From an uncultured virus (IMG/VR IMGVR_UViG_3300014962_000005) (lineage: Duplodnaviria > Heunggongvirae > Uroviricota > Caudoviricetes): a stretch of DNA of 64,000 nucleotides. The DNA lies in the IMG/VR virus record IMGVR_UViG_3300014962_000005; one strand, written 5' to 3'. The notes beneath the pieces were generated by a model. The model did no database searches. It was given only the letters and a program-made list of their open reading frames with translations, and was not told the origin of the DNA. The first letter of the stretch is position 1. Each line of letters starts with the position of its first letter. A program made the position numbers and the translations under genes. Below are positions 10,428-46,804 of the stretch, piece by piece.

Positions 10428-10603
10428 ATACCGCCCTTACCTCCTATGGAATCTTACCCCAAAGAACTTCTCCATGTGCTGCGCAACTTTACATGCGGTG
10501 AAATAAGCTGTGATCGCTGCAATAACCAGAGAGAACAAGCCGCAGACTTAATTGAGGCGCTTCTTTTGAAGATCGAGGTTTTGACTTCTGAGACCCGACG
10601 CGA

Positions 10604-12288: not shown

Positions 12289-13358
12289 ACCTAGTCATCC
12301 CGACCTCCCGCTTCGACACGAAGCTCCTCCCCGACCTCGCCAAAGTCATCAAGAAGTTCGGCCCCTACAAGGGGCACAACCTCGTCGTCGTCCCCACGGA
12401 GACGGCGGTGCAAGAGGCCAACGACTTCTGCGCAACCCTCGGCAGCCTGTTCGACAACGCCACGGTGGAGCCAGTGACTCTCAACATCGAGGGCTGGCCG
12501 GTTGCCCCCAACCGCATGTGGCGCGAGATCGCCCTGCTAATGCAGCGCAAGTACGGCCAAGACCACTGGTTCCTCATGGAGCCTGACGTGACCCCTGTGG
12601 CCGACCTGTGGCTGCAAGCCATCGACACGGAGTACAAGAAGTCCGGCAAGCCCTACCTCGGCTGCATCGTCCCGACCCGCCATGTTCGTCGCCTACCAGA
12701 TGGCCGCACCGAGCGCACCACGATTGGCGAGCACATGGTCGGTGGCGTCGCCATCTACCCGCCCTACGCGGCCTCCAAGAGCGTGCTCATCACCACGCTT
12801 GACCGCCAGATGATCTGGGCGCGGGAACCGCTGGAGCCTTACGACGTGCGGATGCGGTTCGAGATCGTGCCCCACGCCAAGCACAGCGACGCCATTTGCC
12901 ACCGCTGGGGCACCGTCAACTACGCCCAGGATGGCGACACCGTGACGTGCTCCCCCTCCCCCAACAACCCCGAAGGCACCGACCACTCCGGCCCCATCCC
13001 GGCCGGCACGCTCGTCGTCCATGGTTGCAAGGACGGCAGCCTCGCCAAGCTGGTGCTCGGTGGCTGGACCTGTCCGGCTGCTAAGGCCGTCAAGGAGAAG
13101 CCTGTCCAGCAGACTACCACCACGTCCGACAGCGCCGAGACGACCACCCTCACCGTCGAGCCTGAGCCACAGCCCAAGCCCGAGCCGGTGAACTTCGAGG
13201 GCTACCAGATTCGCAAGGCTGCATTGGCCGAGCCGGGCTGCACCGCCAAGAGCCTCGCTGAGAAGCTCGGCATGGACGAGGAGAAGGTGAAGGAGTTCAT
13301 CCGCTCCCCCAGCTCCGGCTTCAAACTCGGGCCGCGTGGCAAGGTCGTGGTGATCTGA
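12285..13358 (+). CDS. putative GT-A fold glycosyltransferase with C-terminal HTH-like extension
   Basis: WFLMEPDVTP (xPD in the DxD position), GVAIYP, VVHGCKDG; cluster context. Confidence 0.5.
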   Translation: MNLVIPTSRFDTKLLPDLAKVIKKFGPYKGHNLVVVPTETAVQEANDFCATLGSLFDNATVEPVTLNIEGWPVAPNRMWREIALLMQRKYGQDHWFLMEPDVTPVADLWLQAIDTEYKKSGKPYLGCIVPTRHVRRLPDGRTERTTIGEHMVGGVAIYPPYAASKSVLITTLDRQMIWAREPLEPYDVRMRFEIVPHAKHSDAICHRWGTVNYAQDGDTVTCSPSPNNPEGTDHSGPIPAGTLVVHGCKDGSLAKLVLGGWTCPAAKAVKEKPVQQTTTTSDSAETTTLTVEPEPQPKPEPVNFEGYQIRKAALAEPGCTAKSLAEKLGMDEEKVKEFIRSPSSGFKLGPRGKVVVI

Positions 13359-13401: not shown

Positions 13402-15705
13402 ATGCACACCCCCCTCACGGACCTCACTCTGCCGGTCGTCAACCAAGACGGCGAACCACTCGACCCGCGAGTGAAGGACGCAGCCTCGCTGCGGTCGCTC
13501 TACGTCAAGACCCGCGACGCTGATTTGGAGTCGGACCGGCAGCGAGCGAAGGTACAGGCGCTTGTGGATGGTCAGCCCCCCTACAATCAGGCGAAGCTGA
13601 ACTCCAACGGGCAGGGGTACATGAGCAACTTCAACCCCAACGACGCCAAGGCAGCCTTGGACGCCGCTCTTGGGGCCTACGTTGACCTACTCGCCGCCGA
13701 TGTGCGGGTGTTCGACATCTACACCAAGTACGGCACTGAGTCTGAGCGTCAGGAGTGGTCCACCATCATGTCTGAGGAGATGGGCTACGTGCTTCGGTCG
13801 TGGCCCCTTTTCATGTTCCGGTTCAGCTTCATCCCGCTGTACTTCACCCTCCACGGCGTCGCCACCGCCTACTTCGAAGACTGCCACAACTGGCAGTGGA
13901 ACACGACCCACCTCGGATACTTCAAGATCCCCCGCCAGACCCTCGCTGCCGAGGAGGAGGTTGAGTATGCGTTCCTGCGTGACTACATGCAGCCGCACCA
14001 GCTTCTGCGTTACATCAAGAACGAGGAGTACGCCAAGGAGGCAGGCTGGAACATCGAAGCCGTCAAACGCTCGCTACTCACCGCCGTCTCCCCGCAGATG
14101 GATACTCGCTTCTGGACGGAGTTCGAGGCCGAGTACAAGAACAATGACTTGGTCAAGGGCGAGACCGCCCCATCCATCCCCGTCGTCTATTCATGGGTGC
14201 GCGAGTGCGACGGCACCTACTCGCTCTACCTGATGACCGAGTCGGAGCTTGGCAACAACGGCACGACCGTCGGCGACCAGTTCCTTTTCCAGAAGCGCCA
14301 CGCCTTCAAGAGCGCCACCGAGGCGTTCGTGATGTTCACACGCGGCATCGGCACCAACGGCACCTACCACAGCATCCGTGGCCTCGGGGCTGACATGTTC
14401 AACGCTTATCAGGCGCTCATGCGTCTGGAGAACCGCAAGGTGGACATCGCAAGCTCGGCCGGGCCGTTCTTCCAAGCGGAGAGCGAGGAGGCGATGCAGC
14501 AGCTCCAGATCACGCCCTACGGCCCTTCGATGCTGGTCAGCCCCGGCATCACCGCCCTGAACGTCAATCAGCCTCAGGTGACGAACACCATCCAGCCAGC
14601 CATCAACTCTCTGCGAGAGACCGTGGCCCGCAATGCAGGAGGTTACGCGCCTACCAACGTCCTGTCTCAGACCAAGGAGATGACCCGGTTTGAGGCCATG
14701 GCACAGATGGAGCAGCAGGGCCAACTTTCCGTCACCAGCATCAACCTCTACAATCAGCCGGCCGACCGCCTCGCCCGCGAGGTCGTCCGTCGATTCACCG
14801 CGAAAGGCTACCAACGCGGCGACCCCGGTGGTCACTACGTCTGGGAGTGGCGTGAGCGTTGCATGGAGCGCGGCGTGCCTGCCAAGGCGCTCGACTCCAT
14901 TGACCATCGCAAGACCAAATCCAGCCGCGTGATTGGCTTCGGGTCCGCTGCCGCCCGCCGCGTGGCGCTCCAGCAACTCATGGAGCTATTCCCCCTCTAC
15001 GACGACTACGGCAAGAAGCAGCTTGTGCGCGACCTCACCGCCTCCGTCGTTGGCTACGAGAAGGCGGATGTCTACGCCCCCCGCGTCTCCAGCGAAGCCC
15101 GCGTGCCGATGGATTACCAGATTGCCGAACTTCAGAACGACGTGCTCATCCAAGGCGGCACCGTCACGGTCAGCCCGAGCGAGAACAAGCGAGTGCACCT
15201 TGAGGTCCACGTCGGCAAGATCGGCGAACTCATCGGCATGTTTGAGGAAGCCGGCCAGAACCCCGAGCTGTTCGCCCAGATCGTGCCGCAGATGGAGCCG
15301 ATCTACCGCCACGCCGCCGAGACTCTTGAGGGCTACACCGGACAGGATGCCCCGCAGTATCGTCAGGCGCTCCAGCAGGCCGGCGAGATCCTCGTCAACG
15401 GCATCCGCCACCTCCAGAAGCTCCAACGCCAGCAGGAGGAGGCCGCGATACGTGAGGCTGAGCAAGGAGGTCAGCCGATGGCCCAAGACCAAGCTCTTGT
15501 ACAGCAACAGCAGATGACCAACGAACTTGAGCGCCGCGTCATCGAGTTCCAGATGAAACTGGAGCAAGACGCCGCCCTGTTCCAGCAACGCATGGAGCAG
15601 AAGGTGCAGGACGCCGCGCTCTCCCGACAACTCAAAGCGGCTGACACCGCCGCCGACATCGCCCGCAAGACCGCCGCACAGCGGGCGTCACTAGGACTTG
15701 CATGA
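13402..15705 (+). CDS. portal protein
   Basis: 767 aa, helical with Gln-rich coiled-coil C-terminus; first gene of the head module. Confidence 0.75.
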   Translation: MHTPLTDLTLPVVNQDGEPLDPRVKDAASLRSLYVKTRDADLESDRQRAKVQALVDGQPPYNQAKLNSNGQGYMSNFNPNDAKAALDAALGAYVDLLAADVRVFDIYTKYGTESERQEWSTIMSEEMGYVLRSWPLFMFRFSFIPLYFTLHGVATAYFEDCHNWQWNTTHLGYFKIPRQTLAAEEEVEYAFLRDYMQPHQLLRYIKNEEYAKEAGWNIEAVKRSLLTAVSPQMDTRFWTEFEAEYKNNDLVKGETAPSIPVVYSWVRECDGTYSLYLMTESELGNNGTTVGDQFLFQKRHAFKSATEAFVMFTRGIGTNGTYHSIRGLGADMFNAYQALMRLENRKVDIASSAGPFFQAESEEAMQQLQITPYGPSMLVSPGITALNVNQPQVTNTIQPAINSLRETVARNAGGYAPTNVLSQTKEMTRFEAMAQMEQQGQLSVTSINLYNQPADRLAREVVRRFTAKGYQRGDPGGHYVWEWRERCMERGVPAKALDSIDHRKTKSSRVIGFGSAAARRVALQQLMELFPLYDDYGKKQLVRDLTASVVGYEKADVYAPRVSSEARVPMDYQIAELQNDVLIQGGTVTVSPSENKRVHLEVHVGKIGELIGMFEEAGQNPELFAQIVPQMEPIYRHAAETLEGYTGQDAPQYRQALQQAGEILVNGIRHLQKLQRQQEEAAIREAEQGGQPMAQDQALVQQQQMTNELERRVIEFQMKLEQDAALFQQRMEQKVQDAALSRQLKAADTAADIARKTAAQRASLGLA

Positions 15706-16040
15706 CCCGATACCGAAAACTACTCGACAGATGGAACAAAGAGGAGGGCCGCTACGCCGCCTTCCGCAAGATTCTGGAGGAACCGCTGATGCGGGACGCT
15801 CTGGAAATCCTTCAAGCGGCAGCAGTGCCGGACACCGCAGGGCTGGAGTCCGTCTTGGGGAAGCGCACAGGAGAGGACGCCAACAACGTCGTCGCCCATG
15901 CGTTCTCCGTTCAAGCCGGCATTCAGCGCGCCTTGAACACCCTGTTCCAACTGGCGGAGCCTGCCCCCAAGAAAGGTGAGGCACTGCCGGAGCCCTATGA
16001 ACACGTCAACGAAACCCTTTTCAACCAACGCCTACAATGA
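15702..16040 (+). CDS. head-associated hypothetical protein
   Basis: coupled between portal and scaffold. Confidence 0.65.
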   Translation: MTRYRKLLDRWNKEEGRYAAFRKILEEPLMRDALEILQAAAVPDTAGLESVLGKRTGEDANNVVAHAFSVQAGIQRALNTLFQLAEPAPKKGEALPEPYEHVNETLFNQRLQ

Positions 16041-17287
16041 GCACTGAAGCCACCCTCGAAGCGCCGGCATCCGCCGTCGAAACCTACGTCAACGACACCA
16101 GCGCCGCTGGCATCATGTCGCGGTTCAAAGCCGCCAACACCTCACAAGAGTCTGCCGCTGCCCCCGAGCCAGCCTCCGCCAGCCCCTCTCTCGCCGCTGA
16201 TCCCACCCCGACCAGCCCGACGCCGCCTGCGGACCCCGCCCCCGCCGCAGACCCGGCTCCGGTTGACGACAGCGGCGTGGAGACCCCTCTCTCCGAACTC
16301 GGCGGCGACACCAAGGCCGACGAGCCGAAGGCCGACCTACCGCTTGACGAAGAACCCCCTGGCCCGGTCAAGACGCCCGAGGCCAAGTACAAGTGGGGCG
16401 AACTTCGCAAGAAGGCCGACGAGTACGACACCCTCACCCAGAAGACACTCCCGCAGAAGGAGAAGGAACTGGCTGAACTGAAAGCCAAGGTGGCGGAGTT
16501 GTCCAGCATCCCCGACCAGTACAGGAAGCAGATCGAGGAGAAGGAAGCTGCCATCGCCGAGTACGAGAAGAAGGTCGCCGCCTACGACATCCAAAGCTCC
16601 AAGCAGTACCGTGAGCAGGTGCTTGAGCCGATGGGTCGCCTCGGCGATGAAATCGGCAACCTCGCCCGCCACTACGAAGCCGACATTGGCCAGATCGAAG
16701 CCGCCATGGCGATCATCGACCCGGTCGCTCAGGAGAAGCGCCTGATGGAGATTGCCGAAGGTTGGCACCCGCGTCACCAGAACAAGCTGTTCGACCTCGC
16801 CGAGAAGACCATTCAGCTCTACTCGACTGCCGAGCAGCTTGAGGCCAACGCCATCGAAGCTCGCAAGGAGCTGGAGTCTGCACGCGAACTTGAGACCCGG
16901 AAGCAGCAGGAGGAGTCCCTCAAGGCCATCCAGACCAGCGCCGAGGCCGTCAAGAAGCAGATGCTTGCCAAGGTGCCAGTGCTCAAGGACGAGGCCGTGC
17001 AGCAGAAGGTGTTTGCCGCCGAACTGGACCCGAAAGACCCTGTGCGCAAAGCCTACAACGCCTACGCTGGCGAGGCATTGCCTGCGGTGCTCAAGGAACT
17101 CGCTGCCCGCGATGCTCGCATCCGCGAACTGGAACAGGCGGCGCAGGCCCGCGCCTCGGTTCAGCCTCGCCCCGGCGCTGGCAATGCAGCCACTGCCGCC
17201 TCGGCAGCCGCCAATCCCGACCCCCAGATGCCTGAGGGCGAGACACTCTGGCAGCGGATGAAGAACTACCAGGCGATGAACTCCTGA
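16037..17287 (+). CDS. capsid scaffolding protein
   Basis: Pro/Ala/acidic N-terminus, long coiled coil, upstream of the capsid gene. Confidence 0.7.
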   Translation: MSTEATLEAPASAVETYVNDTSAAGIMSRFKAANTSQESAAAPEPASASPSLAADPTPTSPTPPADPAPAADPAPVDDSGVETPLSELGGDTKADEPKADLPLDEEPPGPVKTPEAKYKWGELRKKADEYDTLTQKTLPQKEKELAELKAKVAELSSIPDQYRKQIEEKEAAIAEYEKKVAAYDIQSSKQYREQVLEPMGRLGDEIGNLARHYEADIGQIEAAMAIIDPVAQEKRLMEIAEGWHPRHQNKLFDLAEKTIQLYSTAEQLEANAIEARKELESARELETRKQQEESLKAIQTSAEAVKKQMLAKVPVLKDEAVQQKVFAAELDPKDPVRKAYNAYAGEALPAVLKELAARDARIRELEQAAQARASVQPRPGAGNAATAASAAANPDPQMPEGETLWQRMKNYQAMNS

Positions 17288-17325
17288 TCCCGACACGGTG
17301 TCGCGATTTGCGTCGCGATACTGCC

Positions 17326-17363
17326 AGCCCGAGCAGCCTCACCGCTGCTCGGGCTTTTTATTT
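17326..17363 (+). terminator. intrinsic terminator
   Basis: AGCCCGAGCAGC-N6-GCTGCTCGGGCT followed by TTTTATTT. Confidence 0.85.
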
Positions 17364-17383
17364 CACGGATGCTGATTTTCTAC

Positions 17384-17412
17384 TTGACTTTGCGCAAACG
17401 ATTGTGCAAAGT
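17384..17412 (+). promoter_or_regulatory. capsid-gene promoter overlapped by an operator-like palindrome
   Basis: TTGACT-N17-CAAAGT; ACTTTGCGCAA-N4-TTGTGCAAAGT inverted repeat with one mismatch. Confidence 0.55.
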
Positions 17413-17594
17413 AAGCGCAGAGCCATAAAAGCCTGATTCCGGTCAGGGCGCGGCAGCTCAACGTGCGAGAAAACCGGGAACTACTAGGGCCAACACCAAT
17501 CCTAGCCCCGGATTGAAAAGACCTGCGACACCCCTTGTCGCCGGAATCAACTTTTCCCTCCACGTCAGCGAACCTCAACCCCACCCCTACCACC

Positions 17595-18773
17595 ATGGCT
17601 TGTACCGATATTGACAACCTTTTCCAGACTGAGGCGAACCGCATCTCGCGGGACACGTCCGACAAGAGCTGGATCACTACCCCGTGGGACACGAATGACA
17701 TCGTGCCCAAGACCGTCTGGGAAGACGGCATGGGTGAGACCCCCAACTTCATCATCTTCGACCGCTCGATGCCGTTGACGAATCTGGTCCAGTTCCAGAC
17801 CGTCACCTTCAACGACGGCGGCGAAGGCGATGGTGGCGGCTCCTGCACCCCTCCGACCGCTACGGTTTACCAGTCCACCCGCCGCCTGAGCATGTCGCTC
17901 AAGAAGGGTGCCATCCAGTCGCAGAAAATCTGCATCGAGGATGGTCGCATGAGCTGGAACATCGCCCAGCAGGCCGAGCACGTTCTGCGCAACCTCCAGA
18001 TGAACACCCGTCACGCTTGGCAGAACGCCCGCCGCGACGAGTTCACCTCGATGTGCACGAACAAGGCCATCGCCGACGCGAGCATGACCACCAACAGCGC
18101 CTCCTTTGGCACTGGCACCATCGGTCAGATCCGTCGCGAGATGCTCGACTACTGGTATGACCGCCTCGTCGGTGACGGCGCTCACCAGAACAACGGCCTC
18201 GCCCGTGACCAGTATGGCCAGCCCCTTCTGCCGCTCATCCTGAGCCGTGAAGCGCAGGCCACTCTGGTCAACAACGACACCACGCTCAACAACATCCGGT
18301 GGAGCCGCAACAGCTCCGACCTGCTGCTTGGCCCGCGCGGTTCGTTCGTGAACCTGGAAGGCTTCAAGCACATGATCGACATGCAGGCTGCCCGCTGGAA
18401 TCTGGTTGGCGGTAACTGGGTCCGTGTGCCCTACTACCTCCCGGCCACCTCCGCTGGTGACGCTGCCGACGTGAACCCGGCCTACTACACGGCCGAGTAC
18501 GAAGACATCGTCATCGGTAGCAACCAGGTCGTGAAGTTCGCCATCCCCGGTGCCAACCTGCGCGCCGGCCCGATGAGCTTCCCGGCTCAGGACTACCTCG
18601 GCAACTTCCGCTGGATCAACAAGTATGACCTGGAATGCAACGTCGATGAGAACATCGGCTTCTTCCGTGGCGTGCTTGGCTACGGTGCCCAGCCGGTCAT
18701 CCCGGAATACGGTGTCGTCCTGCGCTTCAAGCGCTGCGCCCAGAACTGGGAAGTTGACTCGACCTGCTCCTAA
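17595..18773 (+). CDS. major capsid protein
   Basis: 392 aa after the scaffold, strongly biased codons, own promoter and terminator; start at ACCACC-ATG 17595. Confidence 0.8.
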   Translation: MACTDIDNLFQTEANRISRDTSDKSWITTPWDTNDIVPKTVWEDGMGETPNFIIFDRSMPLTNLVQFQTVTFNDGGEGDGGGSCTPPTATVYQSTRRLSMSLKKGAIQSQKICIEDGRMSWNIAQQAEHVLRNLQMNTRHAWQNARRDEFTSMCTNKAIADASMTTNSASFGTGTIGQIRREMLDYWYDRLVGDGAHQNNGLARDQYGQPLLPLILSREAQATLVNNDTTLNNIRWSRNSSDLLLGPRGSFVNLEGFKHMIDMQAARWNLVGGNWVRVPYYLPATSAGDAADVNPAYYTAEYEDIVIGSNQVVKFAIPGANLRAGPMSFPAQDYLGNFRWINKYDLECNVDENIGFFRGVLGYGAQPVIPEYGVVLRFKRCAQNWEVDSTCS

Positions 18774-19136: not shown

Positions 19137-19490
19137 ATGGCCTGCTCCCCCACCGCCAAACTCGATGTGACGTTCCTGCGCACGATTGACTTCGTGGCCG
19201 TGCAGTATCAGCTCTGCGACGCCAATGGCGAGGGCATCGACTACACCGGCTACTCCATCGACGCCGACGCCCGTAAGACGGCTGACAGCGCCTTGGCTTT
19301 CACCATGGGCATCTCGTGGGTGGATGCCTCAACCGGCACCTACCAGATCGCCAAGACCGACACGGAGACCGCCGACCTCATGGTCGGAGATTACATCTAC
19401 GATGTCGTCTTGACCACAGGGGGCGGGGTCCGTCTGCCGCCCGTCTTCACCGCCAACGTCTACGTCCGCAACGTCTGCACCCAGTCCTGA
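19137..19490 (+). CDS. tail-fibre adaptor / BppU-like beta-sandwich protein
   Basis: [14 protein letters not shown]...[18 protein letters not shown] pattern; precedes the fibre gene. Confidence 0.6.
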
Positions 19491-22400
19491 TGAGCACGCC
19501 CGTCAAGGTCTTCGTCAAGAACCCCCCGCCCGGTCCGGTCAAGGTCATCGTGACCAACCCGGACACCACGGTACGCACCATCGAGGTCAGCCCTACACTG
19601 GTGCCGGGTCCGGGGTTCCCAACCGGGGGCACGGCAGCGGAGATCCTCATCAAGCAGTCAGCGACCAACTACGACGCGACGTGGGAGACGGTGAGTGGCG
19701 ACGCCACCATCACCACCGCAGGCGTCGTGACTCTCGCCAACACGGCAGTCACCCCAGGCAGCTACACCAAAGCCAACATCACCGTTGACTCCAAAGGCCG
19801 CATCACCGCCGCCGCGAGCGGCACTGACAACGGCATCACCGAGTTGACGGGGGACGTGGCAGCAGGGCCGGGCAGCGGCAGCCAAGCCGCGACCCTCCAG
19901 CCTGCGGCCATCTCGGGCAAGACGCTTCTGACCCCGCTCGCCGGCACCGAGGAGGTGCTCATCAACGACGCGGGAACGCTCAAGAAGACGACCGCTCAGG
20001 ACATCGCCGATTTGGCACCACCAGGAGGCATGGCCGACCCCGGCTCCAACGGCATCGTTGTCCGAACTGCCCTCAACACCACCACGGCACGGACCCTCAC
20101 GGCCGGCACCAACGTCACGGTGACGAATGGCACGGGGGTGAGTGGCAACCCGACCGTCAACGTGCCCGATGCCTCGACCACCGTGAAGGGGGCCGTGGAG
20201 CTTGCGACCGACGGCGAGGTGGCCGCAGGGCTGGCAGTGCAGGCGAACGACGCCCGCCTTTCCAACGCCCGCACGCCGACAGCACACGCCTCTAGCCATG
20301 TCACCGGGGGCACCGACAAAATCCGAGACGCTACGGCATCGCAAGACGGGCTAATGACGACGGCCTACGCCTCCAAGCTGGACGGAATCGAGGCCAACGC
20401 CGATGTCACGGACGCCGCCAATGTTGGTTCGGCGATCAACGGCAGCGCCGCGAAAACGACGCCGGTGGACGCCGATGTGCTCGCGATGCTTGACAGCGCG
20501 GCATCGTTCATCTTGAAGAAGGTCTCTTGGGCCAACATCAAGGCCACGCTCAAGACCTACTTTGACACCCTCTACCCGAGTGGCAGCGGCACGGTATCTG
20601 GAACCAATACAGGCGACCAGAACCTCTTTGGCACCATCGCCGTCTCAGGCCAGTCGAACGTCGTGGCGGACTCGACCTCCGATACGCTGACTCTGGTAGC
20701 CGGCAGCAACGTGACGATTACGACCGACGCTGTCACGGACTCCATCACGATTGCAGCGTCTAGCGGCGGAGGCGTCTCGGACGGCGACAAAGGAGACATC
20801 ACCGTGTCGGGTAGTGGCGCTACATGGACTATCGACAATGATGCCGTTACTTACGCCAAGATGCAGAATGTCTCAGGGGCGAGTCGCTTGCTCGGCCGTG
20901 GCAGTGCTAGCGGTGCAGGCGATGTGCAGGAAATCACTCTCGGCACAGGTCTCAGCATGACCGGAACGACGCTATCAGCCAGCGGAGGCATTGGTGGAAG
21001 TACAGGCTCCTTTGACAGCCGAGTTCTCGTTGCAGACGGTGTTGGTGGGAGCACCCTCAAGTCTGTTGAGTTCACTTTCACTGAATCCACGGGAGTCCTG
21101 CAGTTTCCCTCGGGGGTTGACGGCGGTGCCGGCTCTGCGGTTGGGCCATTGGTTTTCGGTAAAGGTGGGGCCTCCACCGCAATCGACGCTGGAGGATCGG
21201 GAGGGGTTGTCGGCCTTTTTGGTGGAAACGCTGATGCGGGAGGTGCAGGCGGTAGCGGAGGCACGATTAACGTCGGCGGCAGTGACGCCACTGCAACAGA
21301 CCCCGGAGCTAACGGAGGGTCGATTAACACCTCGGCTTCCGGCACCACACCGGGCGGTGATATCAACACTTCTGCTGGCGGTTCGATCAACACTGCAAAC
21401 GGAGGCGGGTCGATTACGACCGCCAGCGGCGGCGGGTCTATCAACACTCAGGGGACAGGAACAGTCGAACTCGGGCAGAGCGGCACGCGAACTACACTGA
21501 GCGGGACAGCCACCAACGACCGGGCCATTTCTTTGCCGGATGCGAGTGGCACTCTCGCCCTGCTCTCTGACATTCCTGCGGATACCGGCATCACCCAACT
21601 CACGGGCGATGTGACGGCCGGCCCCGGCAACGGTAGCCAAGCCTCTACCATTGCCAATGACGCCGTGACCTACGCCAAGATGCAGAACGTCAGCGCAGCC
21701 TCCCGGCTGCTCGGACGCGGCAGTGCCTCCGGCGCGGGCGACGTGCAGGAGATCACGCTCGGTTCCGGGCTGACGATGAGCGGCACGACCCTCTCGGCAG
21801 CAGGCGGTGGTCTTGGCGATGTGGTTGGCCCCGCCAGCGCCACGGACACGGCTCTCGCCCTGTACGACGGCACAAGCGGCAAGCTCATTAAGAACAGTGG
21901 TATCACAGTCGATGCCACTGACAAGATGGCGGGCGTTGCTTCGCTGGCCTTCGACACCGTTGCTCCGGCAGTTCCCAGCGTTCAAGGGGAGCTTGCATGG
22001 GACGCCTCGCTGGAAACGATTGTTGCCAAGCTCAACGGGTTTTTGCTGCGCATCGGCCAGCATATCGTTTACCACGGCACTAACCAGAGCGGCGTGACAA
22101 TCGCCAAAGGAAAGCCCGTCATGTATGCCGGCACCGATGGCAGCAGCGGCAAAGTCAAGGTTAAACTTTGGGACGGCGTTGGACCTAGCCGGCTTTTCCT
22201 TGGCCTGGCGGCGGAGGAAATGACCAACGGCAGCGAGGGATTTGTGGTGGCGTTCGGCATCGTGGATGGCATCCAGACGAACGGCGGCAACTACTCGCAA
22301 ACGTGGACCGACGAGCAGGAGATTTTCGCCGGCTCGACAAGCGGCAGTCTGACGAATGTCCAGCCGGTTGCCCCAAATCCTCACGTGTCTGTTGGCTTTG

Positions 22401-23656
22401 TTGTCAGTGCCCACGGCAGCAACGGCACGTTCTTTGTGCGCGTGGCTCTTGGTTCCAACATCGCCGACGATGAGGGCGTGACGATCACGAGCCTTGCCAG
22501 TGGGCAGTTGCTTGTCGCCAACGCTGCGGGCACGGTCTTCGAGAACAAGAGCGTTTCCGGCGATGCCACGCTTACTAACACTGGGGCGCTGACCATTGCC
22601 AACAATGCCGTGACCAACACCAAGGCGGCAGACATGGCCGCGTGGACCGTCAAGGCCCGCAACAACGCAGCCAGCGGCGACCCGCAAGACGTGGTTGCCA
22701 CCGACTTGACCGAGGAAACGACGCCCGCAGCCGGCGACTTCCTGCTGGGCTGGGCTTCGAGCGGCGAGCTTCGCAAATTCGACGTTGGGGATTTGCCGGG
22801 CGGTGGCGGCGGCTCATCCATCGACGCCAGACTTTACACGGCCGACGACACTTGGACCAATCCCAGCCCGTCTGTTGCGAGGCCAGTCTTTGTGCGGCTG
22901 ATCGGCGGCGGCGGCGGCGGCGGTGGCGGCCGACGTGGGAACTCCTCCAACAACAGAGCCGGCGGCGGCGGCGGCGGCGGTGGCTCCCTTGTGGAGTTTT
23001 GGACGAACACAACTAACCTGGGTGCAACGGAGTCCGTGGTGGTTGGGGCAGGCGGCAACGGTGGAGCCGGAGCCGTCGGCGTTAGCACGGATGGCGGCAC
23101 CGGGTCGGCTGGTGGCGCGTCATCGTTTGGCGGCGTTTCAGCCGCTGGGGGGCTGGGTGGCGCTGGCGGCGGCGCAACAGCCGGTGCCGGTGGTGCAGCC
23201 CGAACAAGCTCATGTGCATCTGGCATCACGGCGGCGAACAGCCTGGCTGGTGCAAGCGGCCTCAACGGCACACCAAGTGCTGCGGCTGCCAGCGTGCCTC
23301 CATTGCCGACCGGCGGTGGCGCTGGCGGTGGCGCTGCCTCAAGTGTCACGCCGACTTCTGGGTCTGCGGGTGGACTTGTGGGCAATAGCCTCACACAACA
23401 AACGGCTGGTGGCACTGCGGGCACTCTGGGCAACAACGGCGGCAACGGCAACTCTGTGCCGCGGTCGTTGGTCGGCACGGGCGGCGGCGGTGGTGGCGGT
23501 GCCCCGAATGGCGGCGCATCCCCAGCAGGCAACGGCGGCAACGGCGGACTTTACGGCGCTGGCGGCGGTGGCGGCGGAGTCGGCGAAAACGGCGTTACGG
23601 TTGGCGGCGACGGCGGCGACGGCGCACAGGGCGTTGTCCAAATCATCACGTTTTGA
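19490..23656 (+). CDS. tail fibre / receptor-binding protein with internal repeats and Gly-rich C-terminal domain
   Basis: G/S/T/A-rich; [12 protein letters not shown] and [13 protein letters not shown] fibre motifs; start at ATG 19490 overlapping the upstream stop. Confidence 0.85.
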
Positions 23657-24726: not shown

Positions 24727-24938
24727 AAGCTCTCCTCACTCTCCTGACTACTAGCAAAGGCTGGCTCGTCCGCCAGATCGCCAAGTTCGCTGGTTACGCC
24801 GGTGCCATCCTCGCCACTAAAGCCGCCGCCGCTGGCGCAGTGAGCGTCACCGCTGAGAACAGCACCGCCGCCCTGACTCTGATCGGTGTCGGCCTGCTGG
24901 AAGTCGCTCTGTCGTTCGTCGCCCGCAAGAACAAGTGA
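24723..24938 (+). CDS. holin candidate
   Basis: two hydrophobic segments, basic C-terminus, coupled to the endolysin. Confidence 0.55.
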   Translation: MKALLTLLTTSKGWLVRQIAKFAGYAGAILATKAAAAGAVSVTAENSTAALTLIGVGLLEVALSFVARKNK

Positions 24939-25483
24939 AGACCATCATCCTCGATCCTGGCCATGGCCTGAGCAACCGCAAGCCGGGTGTCTTTGACCCC
25001 GGTGCGGTCTCGGGCGATGTGCGCGAGGCCGACATCGCGATGGCGTGGGTAAACGAGATTCGTGCGTTTCTGCGGTGTGCCGGCTACAAGGTCATCAGGA
25101 CTCGGTACAACAACGATGACCCTGCTCCCGTGAGCGAGCGCGCCACTATCGCGAAGGAGTTCGGCGGCGACATCATGCTCTCCATCCACTGCAACGCCGC
25201 TAATGGCACGGCCAACGGTACGGAGACCTTCTATCGAGGCGAGGCCAACCGCAAGAAAGCCGAGGCCATCAACAAGGCTGTGGTCGATGCACTGGGCACT
25301 CGCGACCGTGGTGTGAAGCTCGAAGCCGCCAGCCAGCACAAGCGCCTCGCTGTGATGGCGTTCCAGCCCTGCCTACTAGTCGAATTAGGATTCATCGACC
25401 ATGAAGGGGATCGGGCCAAGATGCTCGACCCAGAACTGCGGGCCAAAGCCTGCGAAGCCATCGCCAACGCACTGACCGCATGA
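24935..25483 (+). CDS. endolysin, N-acetylmuramoyl-L-alanine amidase (Amidase_3)
   Basis: ILDPGHG, E, SIHCNA, LVELGFI. Confidence 0.9.
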   Translation: MKTIILDPGHGLSNRKPGVFDPGAVSGDVREADIAMAWVNEIRAFLRCAGYKVIRTRYNNDDPAPVSERATIAKEFGGDIMLSIHCNAANGTANGTETFYRGEANRKKAEAINKAVVDALGTRDRGVKLEAASQHKRLAVMAFQPCLLVELGFIDHEGDRAKMLDPELRAKACEAIANALTA

Positions 25484-26705: not shown

Positions 26706-27431
26706 ATGAACGTGTATGCCTACTTTGTGAACGGGACCGTAGCCCCCTTTGAAGGGGTCACGGCGATCACGTCAATCGACCTGCACCCGACGATCACCCT
26801 CCAGACGACCGCCACCACCACGGCAGGCAGTCCCGTACTGACCGCCGTAGCCTCGACCACCAACCTCGTGGTCGGTCACTACGCGTTCGGGCCAGGCATT
26901 CCCGCTGGCGCGAAGGTGGCAGGCTTCACCGCTAACAGCGTCGTAGTCCTCGACCGTCCGGTGCAGGAGTCTGGCACAGGTGTCAACGTCGCCTTCCACG
27001 GCGTCAGCGCAGCCGACTACGAGATCACCCGCTTCGATTCCGGCACCTACCGCGACCTGTTCACCGCCAGCACGGCCAGCCTCGGCCTCTACAAGCAGAG
27101 GGAGGCTGGGGTGGACGCAGGGTTCGCCCTTGCCACCGAAGGCGCTCTTGCCACCTCGGGGGTTGTTGCTCTCCCCGGAGACGCCATGGTTCCGCAGTGG
27201 AACAAGCTCGGAACGACGGGCGGTGCGGAGCCGGTTGCCACCTCGGTCGTGCCATCCTTTGAGACAGCCCGCGTCAATGCCAGCGATGAAATTGACCACT
27301 TCGCCCCGCGACAACTCTCGTGGAGCGAAGCGGTCTGGTCCATCACTTGCACTGTCGGCGACGAAACTCTGGTTCACTACCTTCGCAAGTCGCTTGTCAT
27401 TGGCTTCTCGAACCTTGCTCCAGAAATCTAA
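26706..27431 (+). CDS. putative virion structural protein
   Basis: TTTAGSPVLT...GPGIPAGAKV beta-rich motif typical of tail proteins. Confidence 0.6.
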   Translation: MNVYAYFVNGTVAPFEGVTAITSIDLHPTITLQTTATTTAGSPVLTAVASTTNLVVGHYAFGPGIPAGAKVAGFTANSVVVLDRPVQESGTGVNVAFHGVSAADYEITRFDSGTYRDLFTASTASLGLYKQREAGVDAGFALATEGALATSGVVALPGDAMVPQWNKLGTTGGAEPVATSVVPSFETARVNASDEIDHFAPRQLSWSEAVWSITCTVGDETLVHYLRKSLVIGFSNLAPEI

Positions 27432-28237
27432 TGCCATCGAACTTCGAGCTGATCGCCACTCCTGACCCTACCGAGTTCACCATTCGGACAAGGATTCCAG
27501 ACACGTTGATCAACAAAGCCAACGCACTCACCTGCAACGGCAAACTGGAACGCTACCTGCCGTACAAGGATTTCGCATGGGCCGTTCGTCGCGAGCGAGT
27601 GGAAGAGTTTGGCGAGTACGTCTATACCTATGTCGAGCCGGCAGACTCTGGGCACAAGTGGTTCTACTTTGCTCGCAAGCGCACACAGAAGGAGCGAGAC
27701 ACGCCGTTTGAGACGTTCTACAGTTCAGTTCAATATCCTTGGCCGGCTGTTCTCGAAGATCTGTTTTTGGTTCAGTCCAGCTTTCCACAATCCACCTACA
27801 ATGGATCTACCACTGTCACGGCTCCGCGCTATTTTGTTCGGAGAAAGTACCGCCCCTCGGTGAGCATCAACAGCCGAATCAAGGTTGACCAGTATCTCTC
27901 CGAGGTTCCGTGGCCTGCATCCGCGTTGGTTCATCAGGAGCCAATCCCTACCGAGGTCAATGGCAGCTACCTCGGTTTGGACATCAGCTTTCCGAAATGC
28001 CTCCATCCGCGCATCGAGCTTCCCGAACTGGTGCCAGGCGCACAGATCATCTTCAATGCCGGAGCCATTGACCGTACCCGTGGGGGCACGCCCAGCAAGC
28101 AGGTATTCCCCGCGACCAACTTCGAGGATTGGCGGCCATTCGTGAAAGAGGACCAAGTGCAGCCTCAAAAAGGTCTCTGGCTTCGTGAACGGGTAACGAT
28201 CTATCCCCCGCAGCGCATCGAGAGCATCGAGAACTGA
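27431..28237 (+). CDS. hypothetical (probably tail) protein
   Basis: start at ATG 27431 overlapping the upstream stop. Confidence 0.6.
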   Translation: MPSNFELIATPDPTEFTIRTRIPDTLINKANALTCNGKLERYLPYKDFAWAVRRERVEEFGEYVYTYVEPADSGHKWFYFARKRTQKERDTPFETFYSSVQYPWPAVLEDLFLVQSSFPQSTYNGSTTVTAPRYFVRRKYRPSVSINSRIKVDQYLSEVPWPASALVHQEPIPTEVNGSYLGLDISFPKCLHPRIELPELVPGAQIIFNAGAIDRTRGGTPSKQVFPATNFEDWRPFVKEDQVQPQKGLWLRERVTIYPPQRIESIEN

Positions 28238-28241
28238 AGCC

Positions 28242-28655
28242 ATGATCCGCACCATCCAAGGCGATTTCGGTCCAGATGACAGCCCGTTCCTTGCCTCCGC
28301 GCAGACGTACGGCATGACTGGCATCATTGCCCAGCGCAGCCGCCTCAACAACACCGTAGTCGTGGAACCTGAGCCGATGGCCGAGGTGAAGACCTACAAT
28401 GTGGGGTTCGAGTACATTCCGCCTCCAACACCTNNNNNNNNNNCTCCTACGCCGACTCCGACTCCTACGCCTACATCTACGACGACACCGACGCCGACGA
28501 TGACGCCGACGATCACTCCAACGGCGACGCCGACAATGACACCCACGGTCACTCCAACAGTGACTCCTACGGTTACGCCTACTGTAACACCGACAGTCAC
28601 GCCAACTACTTCCCCAACTCCACCACCAACGCCTACACCGACACCTCCTCCATGA
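28242..28655 (+). CDS. mucin-like Pro/Thr-repeat protein
   Basis: C-terminal half is PT and TPT[V/M/I/A] repeats with degenerate codons; N gap at 28434-28443. Confidence 0.7.
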   Translation: MIRTIQGDFGPDDSPFLASAQTYGMTGIIAQRSRLNNTVVVEPEPMAEVKTYNVGFEYIPPPTPXXXXPTPTPTPTPTSTTTPTPTMTPTITPTATPTMTPTVTPTVTPTVTPTVTPTVTPTTSPTPPPTPTPTPPP

Positions 28656-30103
28656 CCCTAAGCGTAGTTATAAATACCCACAATGAAGGCGGTAGGGTTG
28701 AGTCAACATGTAGGAAGTTTTTAGAATCCGGGGCTGACGAGATCATTGTTTTTGCAGATGCAACCACAGATGGTTCGTGTGATAATCTGCCGCCAAGAAC
28801 AAAAGTTCTCAAAAGCTCTACGCCACTAGGCTGCGGCAAGTCAAAAAACATAGCCAGCTCAGTAGCAACCGGAGATGTCTTGATGTGGGTAGATGCCCAT
28901 CAGTCGGTCGAGGCCGGAGACATTCGTGAGATGGCAAAATTTGCAGTCTCGGATGACATCGTAGTTTGCCCGCCTCTGGCAAATATCTTTTATGACGAGC
29001 AGTGGCAATCTCACCGAGTCTCAAAAGAGGATAAGCTGTTCTATCCAAGCAACTCCGCGATGTCTCCCTCCAGCGGACAGCAGTATCGTTTTGGTCCAGA
29101 GGAGCAGCAAGCCGCCGTTGGAGTCGGGTTGTGCATGTCAAGAAAAACCTATCGTCGCTTGGGGGGTTGGAATAACTACCGAGGCAGGCATGGGTCACAA
29201 GAGCGCGGTATGTCGCTCAGGGCTTTTATGTCTGGCGTGCCTGTTGTGGTAAACTCAAACGTGGTTCTAGGACACGAGTTCTATGGAGATAAACATCCCT
29301 CTAGGAATGCCAGCACAGGGCAGTATAAATTCAACAACTTCGTATCCGGCCACCACAATCTCTGGCACGCTTATCAAACAGTTTTGAGCGAGCACGGATT
29401 TAAAGAAGTGATGGCCCCTTGGCTTGAGTCACTTGAAGGGGCAGCCCAAGGGAAAGCAGCGATGCAAGATGCGGGGGCTATTCAAGACAGGGATTATTTC
29501 CTGAGGCACTGCAAGCGTAGGACAGACGACGAACTTTTTGAGTTTCTGAGCAGCTTGACACCGCTGACCTTTGCCAAAGACAAAGGTGGGGCGGCTTTGG
29601 AGCCGGCCGCTGTCCACTTCATTAGATCTCACGCCATCGGTCGCTGCTTGGAACTTGGCACAGGATCAGGAAAGGGTACTATCCCCTTGCTTGAAGGAGC
29701 GGCGAGTGTTGTCAGCATTGATCATATGGAGCAATACACCAACGCAGCGAAAACCTCCGTCAAAGACCCACGCGCTGTTTTTCACACGGCCGATATCAAG
29801 GACAACGGGTTCTACGAACTCTCCTTCCTTGATGGCAAGTTTGATCTCATTGTCATTGACGGCCCACCAGGAACCAAGGCTAGGCGCTTCAGCGTTGAAG
29901 AATGTTTGCCTCACTTGGCTTTCGGCGGGGTCATTCTAGCCGACGACGCCAAGCGCGACATCGAAGGCATCAACGAGGCTGCGTTGAAGTACGACCTGAG
30001 CGTCGCTATGCTGCCAACCTCTCGCGGGCTGGCCAAGATCACGCCGCGTAAATATCCGCCAGTTCCCGCATCCGCTTCTGGACAAAACTTTTGCCTCCAA
30101 TAG
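28652..30103 (+). CDS. GT-A glycosyltransferase (ppGalNAc-T-like) fused to a class I methyltransferase
   Basis: SVVINTHNE, ATGDVLMWVDAH, VVCPP, MSLRAFMSG, LGHEF; C-terminal LELGTGSG, DLIVIDGPPG, GGVILADD. Confidence 0.8.
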   Translation: MTLSVVINTHNEGGRVESTCRKFLESGADEIIVFADATTDGSCDNLPPRTKVLKSSTPLGCGKSKNIASSVATGDVLMWVDAHQSVEAGDIREMAKFAVSDDIVVCPPLANIFYDEQWQSHRVSKEDKLFYPSNSAMSPSSGQQYRFGPEEQQAAVGVGLCMSRKTYRRLGGWNNYRGRHGSQERGMSLRAFMSGVPVVVNSNVVLGHEFYGDKHPSRNASTGQYKFNNFVSGHHNLWHAYQTVLSEHGFKEVMAPWLESLEGAAQGKAAMQDAGAIQDRDYFLRHCKRRTDDELFEFLSSLTPLTFAKDKGGAALEPAAVHFIRSHAIGRCLELGTGSGKGTIPLLEGAASVVSIDHMEQYTNAAKTSVKDPRAVFHTADIKDNGFYELSFLDGKFDLIVIDGPPGTKARRFSVEECLPHLAFGGVILADDAKRDIEGINEAALKYDLSVAMLPTSRGLAKITPRKYPPVPASASGQNFCLQ

Positions 30104-31820
30104 CCCCACCCGGCTTCTCTGCCGATGTGAGCTTGTGCTTCTTCATGGCCATAGCAAGCATGAGCATGAAGCTGTCTGCTTCGTCAGGTGAGCGGCCCAG
30201 CTTAGCCTTCATCTCCTCCTTGGGCGTGACCTGGATCCTCTTGCCATTAAGCTTGTAGGTGCGGGCCGTCATCTCGCGGGCGAGAGACGGACCGACACCC
30301 CTGATTTGCCCAGCACGAACGAGAGGTTGCCCTGAGAACCAAAGCTCGGAGACCTTGTTGTAGTACTTCTCCTTGTCATCTGGCGCACCGCCGAACTGGA
30401 CGCGGGTGAAGGCGTTGGACCACTTGGCAGCGAGCATGTCGCACCACGGTGAACCGCCACCAGTGGCGTCCACGGCGAGGTCTTCCGGTGCCACTCCCTC
30501 CTTCTCGCAAATCTCCTTGAGCTTCATGGCGATCTGCTCGGAGCGGCTGACCGACGAGTTGGTGATGTCCTCGTAGAGCTTGTGCGTCGCCACCCTCTCG
30601 ACAGTCACGATGCCGTCAACGCTGGTGCCGACCTTGCCGATGGTCAGAACCGAGTCGTCACCGCCATGGGTGAAGCTCGGGTCGAACCCAGCTACCTTGC
30701 GGACGCTGCCCTTGAACACCGCCTTGTCGTGCGCCCCGTAGGTTTGGAGCATGACGCCTGAGTAGATGGCGTCCTCTGCCGTCTCAGGGAACCAGAAACC
30801 TTTGACCATGCAGTAGTAGCGCAGGCTGCGCTCACCGAGGTCACGGCGAAGCTCGTTCAAACGAGACTGGGTCATCAGGTAGGGCCACTTCTCGCCTTCT
30901 GCTCCGAAGTTGGGAGACTTCTCCGCATCGAAGCGGATGACGTAGGCACGCTTGCCTTTCCACTCGTAGTCCAGCTCGGAGATGGATGTCCAGCCGCCCT
31001 CCGGCTCTGAGAGGATGCCATGGGGGTCGTAGTAGCTGGTGGGGTTGCCGGTGCCGACGAACTGGAAGTAAGGGTTGGAGGAGAGGTTGGCCTCGGCGGC
31101 GGAGATGAGGGCCTCGCTCAGGTCGGGCAACTCGTCCGCAATGAAGATCATGCGCTTGGCCTTGAAGCCCTTCATCTTGCCGATGGACTCCGTCTCTTTG
31201 GACTTCTCGCCAGCGAGAAGAACCAAGCCACGAGTGTCATCCTTGTAGTCGGTGGCGTGGTCATAGAAGCGGATGATGCCCCCCGAGGAGACGAGCTGGC
31301 CCGGCCCTTGAGCGACCATGTTCTGCCACAGCTTCTCCACGTCACCCCAGATTCGGCCACGGGAATCTTTGAGGCTGGTCGAGGTGAGAATCACCTTCGT
31401 CTCCTGCGGCGCTGCCATGAAGCAAACGATGCCCCACATGGCCATGATGCGGGACTTGCCGGAGGACGCGCAGCCGGCGATGGAGAGGCGGCGGTTCTTG
31501 CAAAGGGCGTCCACCATCCGCACCGCCCACGGGTGCATATCCACCCTCTCGCGGGAGCCGGGGTAGTTCCAGAGCATGTAGGCCGCACGCCAGAAGTGGT
31601 AGGCGCGAGGCTTGCCCTTGGGGTTCTTCTCTCCTCCGATGAAGTACTCGCTGCCCCCACGGGCGAACATCCAGAGTTCCATCTGGAGGGGGTTTTTGAG
31701 CAGCTTCTTGTAGTTGTTCGGCGAGAAGCGCATCAGGTCGTCCATCAGGCCGTAGTCATCGACGGGCAGCGGGATCTGGATTTCCTGAAACTTCGGGCCT
31801 TTGGCGGGCTTTGAAGGCAT
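30039..31820 (-). CDS. terL: terminase large subunit
   Basis: Walker A GCASSGKS, Walker B IFIADE, GTGNP coupling motif, nuclease AGFDPS and RSPDEADS. Confidence 0.9.
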   Translation of the reverse strand: MPSKPAKGPKFQEIQIPLPVDDYGLMDDLMRFSPNNYKKLLKNPLQMELWMFARGGSEYFIGGEKNPKGKPRAYHFWRAAYMLWNYPGSRERVDMHPWAVRMVDALCKNRRLSIAGCASSGKSRIMAMWGIVCFMAAPQETKVILTSTSLKDSRGRIWGDVEKLWQNMVAQGPGQLVSSGGIIRFYDHATDYKDDTRGLVLLAGEKSKETESIGKMKGFKAKRMIFIADELPDLSEALISAAEANLSSNPYFQFVGTGNPTSYYDPHGILSEPEGGWTSISELDYEWKGKRAYVIRFDAEKSPNFGAEGEKWPYLMTQSRLNELRRDLGERSLRYYCMVKGFWFPETAEDAIYSGVMLQTYGAHDKAVFKGSVRKVAGFDPSFTHGGDDSVLTIGKVGTSVDGIVTVERVATHKLYEDITNSSVSRSEQIAMKLKEICEKEGVAPEDLAVDATGGGSPWCDMLAAKWSNAFTRVQFGGAPDDKEKYYNKVSELWFSGQPLVRAGQIRGVGPSLAREMTARTYKLNGKRIQVTPKEEMKAKLGRSPDEADSFMLMLAMAMKKHKLTSAEKPGGAIGGKSFVQKRMRELADIYAA

Positions 31821-45205: not shown

Positions 45206-45425
45206 TCAAAACATCCCCCGGAACAGGTCATCGAAGCGGCCACCGGGAACCCTAGACTTCAGCGAAGCCATCGCCGCCCCAACACTCTTGCCCTGCTCAT
45301 AAGCCTGCTCCCATGTCTGGTCGAACAGCTTGCGCAGGCCGGCCGCAGACATGGTCACTTGACCGTCGCCAGCGAAGGCGGGGGTTCTTGTCGGTGTAGA
45401 TTTTCCAGAGTTCGGATTTGGTCAT
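45206..45425 (-). pseudogene. small gene interrupted by a +1 frameshift in a C5 run
   Basis: 220 nt from ATG to TGA; removing one C of the run at 45380-45384 gives MTKSELWKIYTDKNPAFAGDGQVTMSAAGLRKLFDQTWEQ... Confidence 0.5.
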
Positions 45426-46804
45426 AGTCGTGTGCGTTGTGCAGCAGCCTTCTCCAGCAATTTCAAGCTGTCAAGCAGGCTTCGCTCCGTTTCCTTCTTC
45501 TCCCGCAGCGCCTCTGCCACCACGTCATCCACGGTGCCGGGCGCGATGAGCCTATACACCACAGTGGCGTTCTCCTGCCCTCGCCTCGCCAAGCGTGCCA
45601 CCATCTGCTCGTAGTTCTCGCGGCTGAAGGTCAGCGTCATCCAGACGAGCGTGTTGCCCCCATGCTGGAGGTTCAGGCCATGGCCGACGCTGGCGGGATG
45701 GGCGACGAGCATGGGCACCTTGCCGGCGTTCCACGCTGCGAGGAGGGCCTGCTGCTCTGCCGCACTCTTGGCGTCGGCGAAGAACTTGGCCTTGGGGAAC
45801 CGAGCGCGGAGCCGGTCTTGCTCGCTCTGGAAGTTGACGGCGACGAGCACGGGGCCGTCGGTCTTTTTCACAATCTTCTCCAGCGCGTCCAGCTTGGCGT
45901 CGTGCAGATGCACCGTGCTCTTGTCCTCCATGTAGAGCGCACCCGAGGTGAACTGCTGGAGCTTGCCGAGTAGCACGGCGGCGTTAGCGGCGGTCACGGT
46001 CTGGCCTTCGATCTCGATGAGGAGGTCACGCTCGAACTGGCGGTAGGAGGCGGGGTCTGGTAGAGTCACCTCCACGTCCTCAACGTGAACATCGGGAATG
46101 TCGAGCCAGTCCTCGCTGGACAAAGTGACAGTCAGATGGGCGATTGCTTTGTTGATGGCGTCCTTGGCCCATGGCTTCGGCGTCCACGACCAGCCCATCC
46201 AGTCCGAATCGAAATAGGTCTGCTGGAACCGTGTGAAGGCGGTGCCGAGCGCGGCACCATCGTCCAGCAGGCGGATCTGGGCGAACAGGTCCATGAGGCT
46301 ATTGGGTGCTGGTGTGCCGGTGAGACCCCAGCGTCTCGGTGCCCGTGGGAGCTTGCGGAATGCGTTGATGCGCTTGGACGAGTGAGACTTCGCCTTGGTG
46401 GTCTCGNNNNNNNNNNCGTCCCACACCTCCACGTCGTAGGGAAGCTTGCCCTTCCGCTTCTTCAGCAGCTCGCCGACGATGTGCAGGGACTCGTAGTTGA
46501 TGAGGTAGAGTTGAGCCGTGCCGGCGATGAACGCCTGCTTCCCCTCCTCGGTGCGCAGGTTGGCCACCCGCATCCACCTGAACTGCTCCCACTTCTCCAC
46601 TTCGTTCGGCCAGGTGAGGTTGATAGGCCGGAGCGGAGCAACGACCAGTGCGGCTCTCACAGCGAGGTCGTGAAGCAGTTCGTTGAGGGCGTAGAGGCTG
46701 GTCGCCGTCTTGCCGATGCCCATGCCGACGAACCCAGCGGTGACTGGGTTGTTGAGGAAATGGTCAGCGAGGATGCGCTGTGGCTCGGAGGGGGAGAAGC
46801 GCAT
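45422..46804 (-). CDS. SNF2-like superfamily 2 helicase
   Basis: MGIGKT, WDE (N gap at 46407-46416), LTGTP, GHGLNLQ, ARLARRGQ. Confidence 0.9.
   Translation of the reverse strand: MRFSPSEPQRILADHFLNNPVTAGFVGMGIGKTATSLYALNELLHDLAVRAALVVAPLRPINLTWPNEVEKWEQFRWMRVANLRTEEGKQAFIAGTAQLYLINYESLHIVGELLKKRKGKLPYDVEVWDXXXXETTKAKSHSSKRINAFRKLPRAPRRWGLTGTPAPNSLMDLFAQIRLLDDGAALGTAFTRFQQTYFDSDWMGWSWTPKPWAKDAINKAIAHLTVTLSSEDWLDIPDVHVEDVEVTLPDPASYRQFERDLLIEIEGQTVTAANAAVLLGKLQQFTSGALYMEDKSTVHLHDAKLDALEKIVKKTDGPVLVAVNFQSEQDRLRARFPKAKFFADAKSAAEQQALLAAWNAGKVPMLVAHPASVGHGLNLQHGGNTLVWMTLTFSRENYEQMVARLARRGQENATVVYRLIAPGTVDDVVAEALREKKETERSLLDSLKLLEKAAAQRTRL

Follow-up and report, generated by a model that had tools for sequence, protein, structure and literature searches.

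The late region of the tailed phage analyzed here probably carries a two-gene enzyme-substrate cassette, in which a glycosyltransferase (GT) fused to a methyltransferase glycosylates the Pro/Thr-rich tail of a protein encoded directly upstream. The sequence analyzed, hereafter the window, spans 64 kb and corresponds to most of the phage genome (GC content of 60.5%). The proposal is based on direct observation of the fold and the motifs of the enzyme, of the overlap between the two genes, and of the co-variation of tail and enzyme among related loci. The Thr-tailed protein and the enzyme, which contains a DxH motif, form a real and, judging from their sequences, probably functional pair, the activity of which we infer.

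An earlier note on this DNA had placed the gene pair in the virion arm of the genome. This late-gene setting was supported by PHROG matches for a tail fibre (19316-23656), an endolysin (24935-25483), and the terminase large subunit (30039..31820, minus strand; phrog_2, E-value of 4e-13), the polymerase, primase, and helicase genes being located on the other arm (PHROG). The Pro/Thr and GT genes close a run of plus-strand genes, and the convergent terminase gene overlaps the end of the GT gene. The presumed portal, scaffold, and capsid genes (13402-18773) had no Pfam or PHROG match and are labeled by position only. A second modification cluster is present before the presumed portal gene (9876-13358). 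It includes two methyltransferases, a 351-aa ORF that resembles GT9 by eye and had no match, and a 357-aa ORF with a weak match to a glycosyltransferase PHROG. An HNH-like ORF (by eye) is located between the endolysin and phosphoesterase genes in two related loci (L002:2018-2842 and L003:2117-2809) and is missing from the window.

Two plus-strand genes precede the pair. The first, a 241-aa gene (26706..27431) that is syntenic in L002, L003, and L118 and weakly matches phrog_10467, is conserved in the slot and probably encodes a structural protein. The second, a 268-aa gene (27431..28237), is a conserved marker of the slot and was used as the anchor for comparison of loci. It had 65 homologues and identified 57 viral loci; searches of Pfam and PHROG returned no match for it, and the ESM Atlas returned unnamed viral clusters below 0.9.

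The upstream member of the pair is an ORF of 137 residues as read (28242-28655, plus strand), comprising about 60 ordinary residues followed by a low-complexity tail. The conserved N-terminal domain of about 58 residues (28242..28415) is found in homologues with Thr/Pro tails and in a tail-less 57-aa homologue in L118 (pairwise E-value of 2e-6). The tail (28416..28655), which is the proposed acceptor, is built from PT, TPTM, and TPTV units, with five copies of the latter. The last 68 residues of the protein include 33 Thr and 24 Pro. Among homologues, the composition of the tail is kept and its sequence varies. The highest Thr content in any 40-residue segment (0.525) exceeded that of all other reading frames of the window, the next value being 0.325. 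Ten consecutive unread letters (N) interrupt the beginning of the repeat; the length of the tail is therefore not fixed by the read letters, and the value of 137 aa is nominal. (A second 10-N run is located inside the helicase gene, 45422-46804.) The ORF is real since the orthologues in L002 and L003 are unbroken in the same frame (133 and 141 aa). The stop codon overlaps the start codon of the GT gene as ATGA (28652-28655), relatives having TTGA or GTGA at the same junction. Both the PT/TPTV-tailed ORF and its ATGA overlap with the GT gene are thus as the earlier note had described them. The N-terminal domain is a probable virion anchor, which bears swappable tails in relatives. A virion location of the Pro/Thr protein is suggested by the position of its gene and by the collagen-type tails borne by the same N-terminal domain; the match of these tails to tail-fibre PHROGs is limited to the repeat.

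The downstream ORF encodes 483 residues and harbors PF00535 at positions 4-122 (E-value of 4e-12) and PF13578 at positions 333-432 (E-value of 6e-11), which substantiates the proposed fusion of a GT-A enzyme to a methyltransferase. All the motifs that had been quoted as resembling those of polypeptide GalNAc-transferases (ppGalNAc-Ts, family GT27) are present. The gene is also richer in AT than its neighbors, as had been noticed, with a GC content of 0.518 and a GC3 of 0.55 versus 0.55-0.64 and 0.66-0.88, respectively, for the 14 other genes of the window that were measured. The same dip in GC content was found in L002 and L003. On compositional grounds, the low GC3 would fit a recently acquired cassette. 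A tblastn search with the GT domain detected no match, and hence no cultured carrier, among 50,697 GenBank phages.

The assignment of the GT-A catalytic domain (28652..29560, plus strand) as GT27-like is based on PF00535, on profile searches of the PDB, and on an AF2 model. With the single GT sequence as the query, the PDB search returned five matches, of which four were ppGalNAc-Ts. With a profile of 23 close homologues, the best 14 matches were all ppGalNAc-T sequences, aligned across most of the domain. With a diverse 31-member profile, the best 16 matches belonged to GT27 (E-values of 5e-43 to 2e-24), followed by chondroitin synthase (4e-19), for which the best stretch was limited to positions 4-140. 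The AF2 model of the domain (pLDDT of 88.2, pTM of 0.90) led to the same order. For the GT model (VIA), the closest folds were GalNAc-T1 (Z of 23.8, rmsd of 3.3, 277 aligned residues) and Toxoplasma T3 (Z of 22.9). The matches outside GT27 included chondroitin polymerase (Z of 17.9), which was third overall and the best GT2, SpsA (15.7), and TarS (15.1). Every match listed by Foldseek with the model of the full enzyme was a GalNAc-T. Thus, the comparison of GT27 with generic GT2s that had been called for identifies GT27 as the nearest solved family both by sequence and by fold (Z of 23.8 versus 17.9).

These comparisons bear on the possibility that the GT gene is a moron encoding a generic GT2, the acceptor of which would be host polysaccharide, lipid, or phage DNA. 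The Pfam and ESM Atlas labels of the GT domain are indeed GT2-like only, NCBIfam matches to the GT and methyltransferase domains were below cutoff, and the low GC3 marks acquisition. The PF00535 N-terminal module of polysaccharide-type GT2s is present in the enzyme and is not discriminating; the DxD motif of these enzymes is absent, DAH being found instead. The polysaccharide and teichoic-acid GT2s scored at least 6 Z units lower than GT27 and, with the 31-member profile, matched mainly the N-terminal part of the domain. The generic reading also leaves unexplained the gene overlap and the co-variation with the Thr tail described below, and we consider it very improbable.

In the alignment based on the profile of the 23 homologues, residues D81, H83, and H208 of the phage enzyme align with D224, H226, and H359 of GalNAc-T2. 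These residues are conserved in 199, 199, and 198 of 200 family domains, respectively, in agreement with the DxH motif in place of DxD (D81-A-H83) and the distal His that the earlier note had pointed out. The donor loop is H180-G-S-Q183-E184 versus W331-G-G-E334-N335 in GalNAc-T2, and the WGGE loop had correctly been reported as diverged. In GalNAc-T2, W331 and E334 hold GalNAc, the latter residue binding O4 and O6, as described in PMC4388629. At the position of E334, the 200 family domains contain various residues (Q in 97, N in 26, E in 22, and T in 22). The position of W331 is occupied by W in 120 of them. According to PMC7185993, most inverting GT-A enzymes use the acid at the start of the helix as their catalytic base, some retaining families keeping it unused. 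Neither the donor nor the anomer is therefore fixed by the alignment, since E334 is replaced by Gln and N335 by Glu at the usual position of the catalytic base, and the GalNAc donor and retaining chemistry implied by the earlier note are not supported. A HexNAc donor is plausible, GalNAc not being favored, and Glu184 at the usual base position would allow inverting transfer.

A narrower form of our main reading is that the enzyme is a true ppGalNAc-T, performing retaining alpha-GalNAc transfer from UDP-GalNAc. The proximity to GT27 is in keeping with this activity, as is the alignment of K65, G159, and L160 with R208, G309, and L310 of GalNAc-T2. However, the GalNAc-binding residue E334 is not conserved, Glu or Asp occupies the position of N335 in 194 of the 200 family domains, and the ricin-type lectin domain of GT27 is absent, the C-terminal domain being a methyltransferase. 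We therefore regard a true ppGalNAc-T as unlikely. The lack of a lectin domain, the replacement of Glu334 by Gln, and that of Asn335 by a conserved Glu indicate that the enzyme does not belong to GT27 as defined; judged by its sequence, it is a polypeptide-glycosyltransferase-like, GT27-like enzyme.

Comparison with characterized GT27 members (mouse T1, 8v9q; human T2, 2ffu and 4d0t; Toxoplasma T3, 8uhv) reveals a common GT-A fold across the whole catalytic domain, the DxH motif and distal His, a basic residue at the position of R208, and, as proposed for the phage enzyme, a Thr-rich polypeptide acceptor. The phage enzyme differs by its low identity to GT27 (13-19%), by the lack of the lectin domain and of the N-terminal anchor region, by HGSQE in place of WGGEN, by the fused methyltransferase, and by the location of its gene in a phage, beside that of its proposed substrate. 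The GT60 polypeptide GlcNAc-transferases (Dictyostelium, Trypanosoma) also have the DxH motif and no ricin domain, and act on Ser/Thr of polypeptides, as proposed for the phage enzyme; DxH and polypeptide Ser/Thr acceptors are given in PMC7185993 as features that GT27 and GT60 have in common. A DxH catalytic domain without lectin, as in GT60, is indeed what the phage enzyme contains. No GT60-labeled entry appeared in the PDB and fold match lists, with which kinship to GT60 is compatible. No Pfam family named GlcNAc-transferase was matched by 31 family members at an E-value of 0.1, and the BFVD fold neighbors included, at a TM score of about 0.6, phage proteins named 'Glycosyltransferase, GlcNAc'.

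The C-terminal domain (29588..30049, plus strand; PF13578) contains the motifs ELGTGSG, IDG, and DD of a class I SAM-dependent methyltransferase. Its closest structural relatives are O-methyltransferases (5x7f, Z of 18.3, rmsd of 3.2, 159 aligned residues), and the class I fold and SAM motif of a sugar O-methyltransferase are thus present. PF13578 was detected in 24 of 30 close GT homologues and a methyltransferase domain in 12 of 25 sampled relatives. The fusion to GTs suggests that the methyl acceptor may be a sugar hydroxyl. The methyl cap is kept conditional because methyltransferase genes also accompany tail-less cassettes. In L015 (5019-7991), the methyltransferase domain of a close GT relative is replaced by a divergent one, and long TPTSPSA repeats occur in both of the Ig-domain (He_PIG) genes located directly upstream.

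The earlier note had proposed that the pair builds a methyl-capped glycan brush. The pair alone does not account for such a structure: a single GT domain adds one sugar per Thr, giving a methylated monosaccharide rather than a chain, and a capped brush thus needs other enzymes. Additional enzymes would have to extend the chain, for example those encoded by the GT-like ORFs at 11233-13358, which are weakly supported as GTs. An alternative is that the enzyme extends a sugar placed by a host enzyme or by the 11233-13358 genes, the methyltransferase ending the chain. Consistent with this alternative, the base position holds an acid, which is also the case in inverting GT-A enzymes, and chondroitin polymerase ranks third among the fold matches. 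Capping by a GT fused to a methyltransferase is also known from protein A064R of chlorovirus PBCV-1, which, as reported in PMC9614988, O-methylates the terminal sugar of the virion glycan. A064R, which we regard as an analogy only, shares the viral GT-methyltransferase fusion and differs by its two rhamnosyltransferase domains, which extend an N-glycan in a eukaryotic virus. Against an extending enzyme, DxH in place of DxD is described in PMC7185993 as confined to GT27 and GT60, and Thr tails are consistently accompanied by a DxH enzyme, whereas the other GTs of the slot vary. We give this alternative a small chance.

The association between family GTs and Thr-rich genes was evaluated in family loci of viral, metagenome, and genome origin. 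Other phage GT2 loci found alongside were used as controls, which were not matched for position in the tail operon. Duplicates and loci with less than 2 kb upstream were removed. An ORF was counted as a Thr-rich neighbor if it was on the same strand, reached a Thr content of at least 30% over 40 residues, and was located within 3 kb upstream or 1.5 kb downstream. Such a neighbor was present in 16 of 29 family loci versus 3 of 57 control loci (p of 4e-7) and, after clustering at 50%, in 12 of 25 versus 3 of 47. The 13 remaining family loci fell below the 0.30 cut-off, some having Ser-rich or more weakly Thr-rich neighbors; others, such as L038, L035, L036, and L058, had no such low-complexity neighbor. 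The Thr-rich partners were mutually unrelated, comprising PT repeats on Ig-domain proteins, poly-Thr, Pro-free Thr-rich repeats, and GT/DT repeats. The nearest GT clade adjoins unrelated PT-rich Ig-domain genes in a Verrucomicrobia prophage. The predicted linkage to PT-rich ORFs therefore holds for Thr, the association being conserved and co-varying, but not for Pro, since many of the Thr-rich partners are Pro-free.

Two further features of these loci were recorded. Ser-rich repeats (SQ, SASGSRS, SASPSEQ) occupy the upstream position instead of Thr in L020 (3211-5277), L021 (3876-5345), and L024 (231-2822). Small Cys-rich ORFs or N-terminal extensions are often found between the tail gene and the GT gene in distant relatives (L004:5235-5636, L007:5531-5869, L038:3218-3592).

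In order to match loci for position, a second comparison was anchored on the 268-aa gene, for which 57 loci were fetched. The N-terminal domain of the Pro/Thr protein follows the anchor gene in 53 of 58 loci, with tails that are Thr-rich in 27 loci (window included), absent in 15, collagen-like in 6, and Pro/Ser-rich in 5. Five of the 58 loci were left out for lack of a recognized domain or for a distant anchor, and nine because less than 2.5 kb was available downstream and no DxH gene was seen; five of these nine were Thr-tailed, with less than 1.2 kb left. In three other Thr-tailed loci, 2.1-2.3 kb was available; these were retained as the enzyme was visible, which slightly favors the result. 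Among the 44 scored loci, a DxH GT was present in all 22 Thr-tailed loci and in none of the 22 tail-less, collagen, or Pro/Ser loci. The motif scan detected 21 of the former; the remaining locus, L146, encodes a YTDAH enzyme immediately after the tail. The DxH enzymes of the slot belong to three subfamilies, the window type (3 loci), a DCH/FGGEE type (18 loci), and the L146 type. The three best PDB matches of the DCH/FGGEE-type enzyme were GalNAc-Ts. Profile comparison between the window clade and the DCH subfamily was weak (probability of 31%), and they were treated as distinct subfamilies. The L146 GT, used as the sole query, had no PDB match.

Tail and enzyme are swapped inside clades in which the anchor gene is at least 90% identical. 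L137, L138, L141, and L143 have a Thr/Ser tail and a DCH enzyme, whereas in L139 and L144 the tail is of the collagen type, a 2OG-Fe(II) oxygenase is present, and a DxH enzyme is missing. The anchor tree revealed 7 changes, with 5 independent pairs on well-supported branches and none in the opposite direction (sign test, p of 0.06). The limitation of the latter analysis is that many slot loci are close kin and that the sign test cannot pass 0.05 with 5 pairs. The tail-less loci often contain DxD-type GT-like genes and methyltransferases, indicating that the slot is a general glyco-cassette in which the specific link is that between Thr tail and DxH enzyme.

Other occupants of the slot were observed. 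A Gly-Pro-Pro collagen tail is immediately followed by a 2OG-Fe(II) oxygenase in three of the six collagen-tailed loci (L139:7771-9077, PF13640; L144; L171:7827-9854), forming a candidate collagen prolyl hydroxylase pair. In L133 (7786-9554), a Gly-Pro-Thr collagen tail precedes a DxD GT2 with a TPR repeat, possibly a different protein glycosyltransferase. In L148 (6006-8831), L157, and L158, the Pro/Ser tail is paired with a TylF-type methyltransferase, a GT9, and a Capsule_synth enzyme, and a DxH GT is lacking. L118 (6884-8454) and nine similar loci contain a tail-less domain of 57-59 residues followed by one or two DxD GT-like genes, which had no Pfam match. In L118, a tandem repeat with a 36-bp unit is also found in the interval that separates the anchor gene from the small gene (6788-6875).

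The slot comparison is also relevant to the possibility that the enzyme modifies another virion protein, such as the tail fibre or the capsid, the Pro/Thr ORF being a mere spacer or co-traveller. The Thr content of the tail fibre and of the 241-aa protein reaches 0.30-0.33, and some family loci have no Thr-rich neighbor. In addition, mycobacteriophage GTs glycosylate their own structural proteins (Freeman et al., 2023, cited in PMC10877033, PMC12619734, and PMC11256854). The latter systems resemble the one proposed here, as deduced from the genes, in the action of phage-encoded GTs on the phage's own structural proteins, and differ by their targets, which these sources give as the C-termini of capsid and tail-tube proteins. 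However, in the slot, gain or loss of the tail coincides with that of the DxH enzyme, the flanking genes being constant, which makes another target improbable.

Under our preferred reading, modification of the Pro/Thr tail, residues D81, H83, and H208 would allow the soluble enzyme to bind a divalent metal together with a nucleotide sugar. In the host cytoplasm, the enzyme would add a single sugar to hydroxyls of Thr in the extended tail, and the SAM domain fused to it would subsequently O-methylate that sugar. The N-terminal domain would fix the modified tail on the particle, resulting in a stiff, protease-resistant, mucin-like appendage. The host is probably a member of the Verrucomicrobia, the sole hint being a GT relative at 45% identity in a prophage-like region of a Verrucomicrobia MAG.

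More tentatively, the slot may be a plug-in site where the tail of a single virion anchor domain is exchanged along with the matching modifying enzyme, namely DxH GTs from three subfamilies for Thr tails and a 2OG-Fe(II) oxygenase for part of the collagen tails. The DxH enzymes might then constitute an undescribed prokaryotic sister group of GT27 and GT60, with an acidic base where GT27 has Asn, acting as cytoplasmic, lectin-free, and maybe inverting mucin-type initiators; the product in this phage would be an O-methyl-monosaccharide on dense runs of Thr. We consider this wider scheme possible rather than probable. The literature search, which covered mainly freely available papers, retrieved no account of a GT27-like enzyme of phages that is paired with a Thr-rich protein.

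With a named enzyme, a likely acceptor, and natural swaps available, phage protein O-glycosylation can be tested in E. coli by means of two small genes. Virion glycosylation has been reported for a few mycobacteriophages, and a mucin-type route in aquatic phages would widen its distribution. Glycoengineering would benefit from polypeptide glycosyltransferases that are both small and soluble. Finally, the conservation of an acid at the base position in a GT27-like group is relevant to the origin of retaining mucin initiators from inverting relatives.
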